Source: Glaucostegus cemiculus
Lineage: Eukaryota
Length of the DNA: 64,000 bases
NCBI GenBank assembly: GCA_976551045.1
Contig: CDPCPM010000012.1
Span: forward strand, 682,001-746,000
Direction: 5' to 3'
Notes under the pieces: generated by a model
Told to the model about the DNA's origin: nothing
The model's database searches: none
The model's input: the letters and a program-made list of their open reading frames with translations, nothing else
Shown here: in pieces, positions 63,267-64,000 of the stretch
Layout of the letters: each line of letters starts with the position of its first letter
Position numbering within the stretch: position 1 is the stretch's first letter
Program-made: the position numbers and the translations under genes

Positions 63267-63368
63267 TTGGTATTTGTTTAGGCATGCCTCTGATTCTCTG
63301 ACTAAGACTGTTTTGCCGCGTTTTTATGGGTGGAGGTGCAGGCGGTGGCTTAGGCCAAGATCGTCGTG
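63267..63368 (-). CDS. CADPS: Candidate 102-nt proline-rich CADPS cassette exon: (A)RRSWPKPPPAPPPIKTRQNSLSQRIRGMPKQIP(K)
   Basis: Pyrimidine tract then tgcatgacag|CA...CCAA|gtactg; symmetric phase 1-1, matching the phase-1 acceptor at 62436; stop-free and CpG-retaining. Confidence 0.7.
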
Positions 63369-64000
63369 CTGTCATGCATGAGTGAAAGAGACAGGAAAAG
63401 TAAGCAAGCAGGTGACTGAACGAGCAATGGTACAAGTAATGAAAAAGTCAAAATAGTGAAAGAAACATTAAGCATATTCATGACATTTCAAGAGATACTT
63501 CTGTAACTGCTAACGACAGTTGTAGCTAAATGTTTCTAAAGATCTCAATAATGTACCGTATAGCAGATATTTTAAGCACATGACATGAAATTTGTCAATA
63601 TCAGATCAAAGGATATGCCGGAAAAAATAGCAATCTTGTTTAAAATTTTGCTTATCTTTTTTAATTTAATTGGGTTAAATAGCGCAGTTCACTCAAATTC
63701 TCAGATATACGGTTTTCTTTAAAGAAACTATCAGAAGTTAGTAATGAAATGGCATAAGAAATCATAGCTTTAACAATAATTCCACCCTCAAAAATAGCCA
63801 TCAAATCTATAATTAAATCAGGTATTTTGTTTGTCAGTTACTTTGATTTTGTTCATTGTTCCTTTCTTTCAACAAGTGCAACTAGGACCCAATGGGGATC
63901 TTTTCAGCTTCGCTGCATGGACAATAATCCAGCATAAAGGATTACTTAACTCATTGCAGAACCCACTGGATATACATCCTATTGAAAAGATTGAATCAAG

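Follow-up and report, generated by a model that had tools for sequence, protein, structure and literature searches.

We found that the minus strand of the 64-kb window (the whole stretch of Glaucostegus cemiculus DNA analysed) carries, within the 3' part of the CADPS (CAPS1) gene, a 102-nt cassette exon (63267..63368) which is almost certainly genuine. The best explanation for its distribution among gene models is that it represents an ancient CADPS exon, probably dating to the last common ancestor of jawed vertebrates. Taken as a whole, the account towards which we lean is that of an ancient cassette that would be skipped by default and, when included, would supply a disordered docking arm tuning vesicle priming. 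CAPS1 primes dense-core and synaptic vesicles, and exon 16a, located in the same loop, has recently been tied to CaV2.2 in nociceptors; the cassette is a candidate isoform with a defined motif, extending from sharks to placental mammals but not found in the human and mouse models inspected. As conserved optional proline-rich disordered inserts are common and the cassette is already present in automatic models, it should interest mainly CAPS and splicing specialists.

Gene context and anatomy of the exon

Shark and ray CAPS1 proteins each gave 9–10 collinear tblastn matches in the window, most of them at 89–100%, with the ray proteins apparently somewhat the nearer. The exons for the CAPS MUN/DAMH region follow in order, with matches to PF06292 and PDB 6A68, which assigns them to CADPS; the exons upstream of the cassette (16, 16a and an 18-nt microexon) fall beyond the window edge. 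Read along the minus strand, the cassette is organized as a polypyrimidine tract (63381..63400), TGCATG (63373..63378), the acceptor AG (63369..63370), the 102-nt exon and the donor GTACTG (63261..63266, after CAA). The candidate branch point is CTTAC (63400..63404, with A at -33), judged against the yUnAy consensus. The exon has AG/GT borders, a length divisible by three and a stop-free frame, which, read after two bases, yields 33 whole codons including WPKPPPAPPP and RQNS; the N-terminal half is proline-rich, the C-terminal half basic/hydrophobic and conserved. The first-pass annotation had described just such a proline-rich cassette of 34 codons, symmetric in phase 1 and with UGCAUG at 63378-63373 (-10 to -5). 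The hexamer is there in the sequence, and the phase at both ends is borne out by the junction residues of orthologous proteins, which shift from E to A/V/P...K upon inclusion. The next exon (ENVG...HHAE, 62330..62436, minus strand) begins 830 nt after the cassette and opens the DAMH fragment whose structure is PDB 6A68. Further along the same strand lies the 9-nt GKE microexon (60785..60793), followed downstream by UGCAUG at +48 and +214.

As a check for chance, the minus strand of the window was scanned for YAG..GTR candidates of 3n length preceded by a pyrimidine tract. There were 97, of which 22 were open, and among the latter the cassette has the highest proline share (27%, with the runner-up at 14%). 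A six-frame scan with the orthologue profile, to which the window peptide itself contributes, scored the cassette at 50 bits and everything else below 0; no second copy was found in the 64-kb window. No stable RNA structure was detected around the exon (z +1.4).

Elsewhere in the window, a proline/asparagine-rich CADPS exon is located at 49390-49525; its orthologue may be a chicken CADPS exon of 147 nt that is recorded as enriched in retina and neural tissue, and CAPS2 exon 22 could be its paralogue. The introns hold high-copy repeats, presumably SINE/LINE-like (e.g., at 53580-54380), which dominated the read mapping of 53000-64000.

Orthologues and annotated isoforms

Gene models from RefSeq, UniRef or submitters place orthologues of the cassette in 39 other named taxa, ranging from sharks to placental mammals, although such models may be projected from one another and do not equal 39 independent RNA observations. 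They comprise 4 sharks, reedfish, gar, bowfin, 10 amphibians, a turtle, 3 squamates, 2 crows and 16 mammals, including a Cercopithecinae UniRef entry (Old World monkey). Fish, amphibian and amniote models, the groups to which the first-pass annotation had pointed, thus all conserve the frame-keeping exon. Together with the window peptide, one model per taxon gave an alignment of 40 sequences (Bos indicus shares the Bos taurus sequence and is not counted separately). The search with the window peptide returned eight candidates, all of them Scyliorhinus or Heterodontus CAPS1 isoforms, while for the search with a Chiloscyllium isoform region the best 120 of 2189 matches were listed and cluster members added. 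When a profile of the 40 peptides was run against 484 proteins, 179 of them (the window peptide included) reached at least 43 bits, and the next one scored 1.9.

Its status as a cassette follows from the models with and without the exon that coexist in Scyliorhinus, Chiloscyllium, Engystomops, Lepisosteus and other species, all of these being models and not reads. Two other optional exons, the 23-codon exon 16a and then the 18-nt NQKD microexon, come before it in the interval from AKIE to ENVG. The orthologous exon is held by RefSeq and UniRef CADPS isoform models, all of them automatic (e.g., XP_038666466.1, XP_067907691.1, XP_061252465.1 and UniRef100_A0A2I3NBW1), and is apparently undescribed in print. 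Within a search that placed most subscription journals and several supplements outside its scope, no paper dealt with the cassette, its name, regulation or function, and three cassette peptide strings occurred in no paper searched.

The first-pass annotation stated that canonical human CAPS1 lacks the exon; the two human models checked, isoforms X3 and X6, are without it. The cassette is likewise missing from all 15 mouse RefSeq isoforms listed (of 22; X1 included), from macaque X1, the X1 models of the rays Mobula and Hemitrygon, two models of lampreys and one of a chimaera, and from every teleost model listed, these absences referring to model lists and not to genomes. For primates the test is a weak one, because the query region (905-946 of P0121) consists of exon 16a plus the first prolines and misses the conserved core. 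The cassette is also not among the 16 Cadps/Cadps2 rows in the available part of a mouse retina table. Its absence from the models of several lineages and from these rows suggests that some lines may be losing the cassette or be able to do without it. Two metagenome scans for orthologous DNA gave no match, and an Atlas search yielded scores below 0.8 only. Other variation was seen in the same region (proteins P0224, P0227-P0235, P0461-P0464; P0037, P0048): in salmonids and pike a longer charged exon replaces the 18-nt microexon, and gar, bowfin and salmonids possess an extra optional exon of 10–11 residues ahead of GKE.

Several known CAPS exons resemble the cassette in part. Mouse Cadps exon 16a, which couples CAPS1 to CaV2.2 and enhances CaV2.2 currents in nociceptors (PMC13232204), is likewise a frame-keeping, vertebrate-conserved cassette of the same intron cluster and protein loop; it is cell-type-restricted and confers an isoform-specific property on CAPS1. 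Yet, it has 23 codons of unrelated sequence, lies upstream of the cassette and is annotated in mouse and human; the words "proline", "e16b" and "e16c" occur nowhere in the text of that report. Cadps2 exon 22, as described in PMC1853102, is alternatively spliced, proline-rich and situated in the CAPS MUN/MHD region, brain-specific and linked to higher release activity; in contrast to the cassette, it belongs to the paralogous gene, has 40 codons and is by description located further downstream in the domain. The 9-nt (GKE), 18-nt (NQKD) and 21-nt CADPS microexons are also optional in-frame MUN-loop inserts under neural splicing control. They have Srrm3 or RBFOX1 evidence, whereas the cassette, at 102 nt, is in no matching row of the supplement portions available for PMC9303857, PMC4991804 and PMC13067610.

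The encoded peptide and its predicted structure

The cassette has 34 codons in the window and in 17 aligned shark, non-teleost ray-finned fish and amphibian taxa, 35–37 in sauropsids and 31–33 in mammals. Its C-terminal half contains a QR[LI][KR]GMP[KR]-like core preceded by two mostly hydrophobic columns. Across the same 40-peptide alignment from which this pattern was derived, the successive core columns hold Q in 37/40, R in 35/40, L or I in 38/40, K or R in 40/40, G in 39/40, M in 35/40, P in 36/40 and K or R in 40/40 sequences; no match to the pattern was found elsewhere among the 150 representatives listed. The N-terminal half retains 5–13 prolines in a freely changing sequence and has lost its basic residues in mammals. 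Identity to the window peptide amounts to 76–91% in sharks and 32–64% outside cartilaginous fishes.

The first-pass annotation proposed a WPKPPP ligand for SH3, WW or EVH1 domains, a phospho-switch at RQNS, and RBFOX splicing opposite to that of GKE, a combination that we consider very unlikely. Judged by the usual SH3, WW and EVH1 ligand patterns, PxxP occurs in 40/40 peptides and class I [RK]xxPxxP in 19/40, which agrees with an SH3 ligand; the former is near-automatic with 5–13 prolines per peptide, and the latter is found in none of the 16 mammals. Class II PxxPx[RK] is present in 0/40, as are PPxY, [FLWY]PPPP and PPxxF, which leaves no WW group I and no Ena-VASP or Homer EVH1 ligand pattern in the alignment. 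The tryptophan that creates the WPxPP EVH1-like site appears in 5/40 sequences, all from cartilaginous fishes, and [FLWY]PxPP also in 5/40. RQNS fares no better as a kinase site of the RxxS type, being private to the window sequence (1/40); its serine column is M/I/L/V/T/A in the others. Moreover, the available part of PMC1853102 reports that a two-hybrid screen with CAPS2 exon 22, a different proline-rich exon, found no SH3 partner. What survives of the proposed interaction surface is an alternatively used, frame-keeping segment that adds a proline-rich basic stretch of predicted disorder, while the named motifs are mostly not conserved.

As for its position, the insertion does precede ENVG and stands directly ahead of the DAMH fragment, and only its placement at the start of the MHD region has to be corrected: in P0003 the Pfam MUN match starts with residue 864, some 30 residues ahead of the insertion at about residue 894. 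Alignment to the rat DAMH chain 6A68 starts at residue 928, immediately behind the insert. In an AlphaFold model of Scyliorhinus residues 801-1066, built with a 40-row alignment (mean pLDDT 82), pLDDT drops below 50 solely at model residues 92-131, i.e., the insert, between confident helices at 58-90 and 136-160; Foldseek matched this model to 6A68 (DAMH) and to the Munc13-1 MUN domain. The insert is therefore predicted to form a disordered loop directly ahead of the DAMH domain, which binds SNAREs (PMC12702071). A strong amphipathic helix was considered and rejected, with a hydrophobic moment of 0.19–0.45 and no helix in the model.

According to the account that we favor, exon 16a, the 18-nt NQKD microexon and the cassette would all insert in one MUN surface loop just ahead of DAMH. 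Inclusion of the cassette would keep the fold intact and add a disordered arm of 34 residues (8 basic, 0 acidic), composed of a loose polyproline spacer followed by the conserved short motif (two hydrophobics and QR-hydrophobic-[KR]GMP[KR]). This core, and not WPKPP or RQNS, would be the likely dock for a partner protein or an acidic membrane. Alternatively, the cassette could be a tolerated, rarely included loop extension, either a mere spacer or kept for RNA-level reasons, given that the G-M codons carry GCAUG. This agrees with the low identity outside cartilaginous fishes next to a nearly unchanged following exon, with the models of several lineages that do without the cassette, and with the unrelated inserts that invertebrate-like homologues bear and tolerate at the same site (CAPS2-like proteins bear none). 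Yet, an open frame, a fixed length and an 8-residue core persist across all jawed-vertebrate classes seen, and we regard a mere extension as improbable in a high degree. The RNA-level version also meets with Engystomops, where the exon end at the Gly codon implies GGT at this position and hence no exonic GCAUG, yet G-M appears to be kept. In two Engystomops models (P0168 and P0173) the cassette ends at this core Gly codon, which corresponds to an alternative donor removing GMP[KR].

Splice signals and control of inclusion

Three RBFOX-type sites occupy repressive positions: the consensus UGCAUG from -10, GCACG formed across the acceptor by AG and the first exon bases, and the exonic GCAUG over the Gly-Met codons of the core (63283..63287, minus strand, +82). 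GCACG is counted here as a secondary RBFOX motif. One further UGCAUG, at +280 (62982..62987, minus strand), is in an activating position, the rule, as given in PMC10551640, being that upstream and exonic sites usually repress and downstream ones activate. UGCAUG occurs 33 times on the minus strand of the window, so that a chance occurrence would be expected in about 1.3% of acceptor windows of 26 nt, a figure calculated post hoc. The donor GTACTG departs from GTRAGT at +4, +5 and +6 and is thus probably weak. In the favored account, this weak donor together with the UGCAUG, GCACG and exonic GCAUG would cause the cassette to be skipped by default, and its inclusion would be restricted to a set of secretory cells, in which docking would tune vesicle priming. 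Repression by RBFOX in itself seems plausible, if somewhat short of probable. In the supplement part available of PMC10676425, none of six mouse Cadps RBFOX2 eCLIP peaks (MIN6 cells) falls in the matching intron, the exon being unannotated in the mouse models seen.

Read mapping comprised four (X1, X2, X21 and X22) of the 24 runs listed, all from relatives, of unknown tissue and none on record as RNA. The joints listed, 15 of 356, include no cassette junction, 63267 to 62436 among those sought. In X1, a spliced contig links the ENVG and AFAWW exons via the GKE bases at a depth of 391, and the listed cassette cover is an unspliced contig of depth 80. In X2, the cassette lies under an unspliced contig of depth 16.5, compared with a mean of 281 over the bin containing the next exon. 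The raw-read runs X21 and X22 show zero depth from 62909 to 64000, while that bin reaches 2.9 in X21 and 0.3 in X22. Given unspliced or zero cover and no listed joint, inclusion looks low in these samples. In X2, a single relative, the contig spanning the cassette and its flanks is better conserved than the two intron contigs beside it, with 15 substitutions in 360 positions versus 60 in 583 (Fisher p 0.0007). The unspliced X1 contig (62787-63946) has a depth of 80 versus about 15–32 in other listed intron contigs, possibly reflecting slow splicing or intron retention.

The same signals can be read in the opposite direction: the cassette would be a neural-activated exon, with SRRM3/4 acting through the UGC of UGCAUG and RBFOX enhancing inclusion through the UGCAUG at +280, and would be co-included with neural microexons at least outside mammals. 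We hold this reading to be doubtful. According to 10.1101/2024.09.17.613571, UGC is found between the branch point and AG in 74–79% of SRRM3/4 microexons. The UGC at -10 of the cassette fits this position, provided that the branch point is as deduced, and further UGC triplets occur at -38, -42 and -58; however, at 102 nt the exon is far above the size of SRRM3/4 microexons (27 nt or less). The cassette and GKE occur together in 72 models, which agrees with co-inclusion, and all four combinations of the two exons are on record. Against it, X1 has the GKE-spliced contig and yet unspliced cassette cover. This pattern, and the location of UGCAUG upstream of the cassette and downstream of GKE, would suit the opposite regulation proposed by the first-pass annotation.

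A further association is with the upstream 18-nt microexon, joined to the cassette in 120 of 123 non-mammalian models but in 0 of 55 mammalian ones, counts that concern non-independent, possibly projected models retrieved with a Chiloscyllium query that contained the 18-nt exon and so would have ranked mammalian models with this exon first. The non-mammalian count speaks for neural activation and the mammalian one against it. If the difference is real, any "opposite" partner in mammals would be the 18-nt exon and not GKE. In the portion of the mouse retina data available from PMC4991804, the 18-nt exon has a PSI of 0.79–0.96 and nothing is present between it and ENVG. Pairing with so highly included an exon fits neuronal inclusion and fits poorly a simple RBFOX shut-off in neurons. 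According to supplementary data, the 9-nt exon shows retinal enrichment in human and declines in srrm3-mutant zebrafish eyes (PMC9303857), and the mouse RBFOX1 target listed is the 21-nt microexon, not GKE (PMC13067610), where coordinates in both sources were assigned to exons by length and order and the identities are to that extent deduced.

A bolder extension of the favored account, which we consider unlikely, is that the cassette defines a jawed-vertebrate CAPS1 isoform missed by human and mouse annotation and made in rare secretory cells. Here, QR[LI][KR]GMP[KR] would recruit a partner or PIP2 membrane beside the SNARE-binding domain, human and mouse DNA would still carry the exon intact, and mammals would have rewired co-inclusion with the 18-nt microexon into mutual exclusion.

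Two other regulators were considered. A Musashi/photoreceptor exon was rejected, as UAG shows no excess downstream (4 copies in 294 nt, where the mean is 3.7) and the cassette is not in the 5 CADPS rows of the available part of a retina-exon file. For the idea of a TDP-43 cryptic exon, the accessible parts of the two papers examined (PMC6440020 and PMC12143990) name Cadps2 only; those of PMC12436618 and 10.1101/2024.06.13.598849 also concern CADPS2 only. Separately, three UAG triplets lie within 14 nt at 63086-63099, about 170 nt past the donor; six such clusters exist in the window, where the UAG total is at background. UGCAUG is unevenly spread on the minus strand, with 6 of its 33 copies in the 4-kb bin 60000-64000, which contains both the cassette and GKE, and 0–3 in the other bins.
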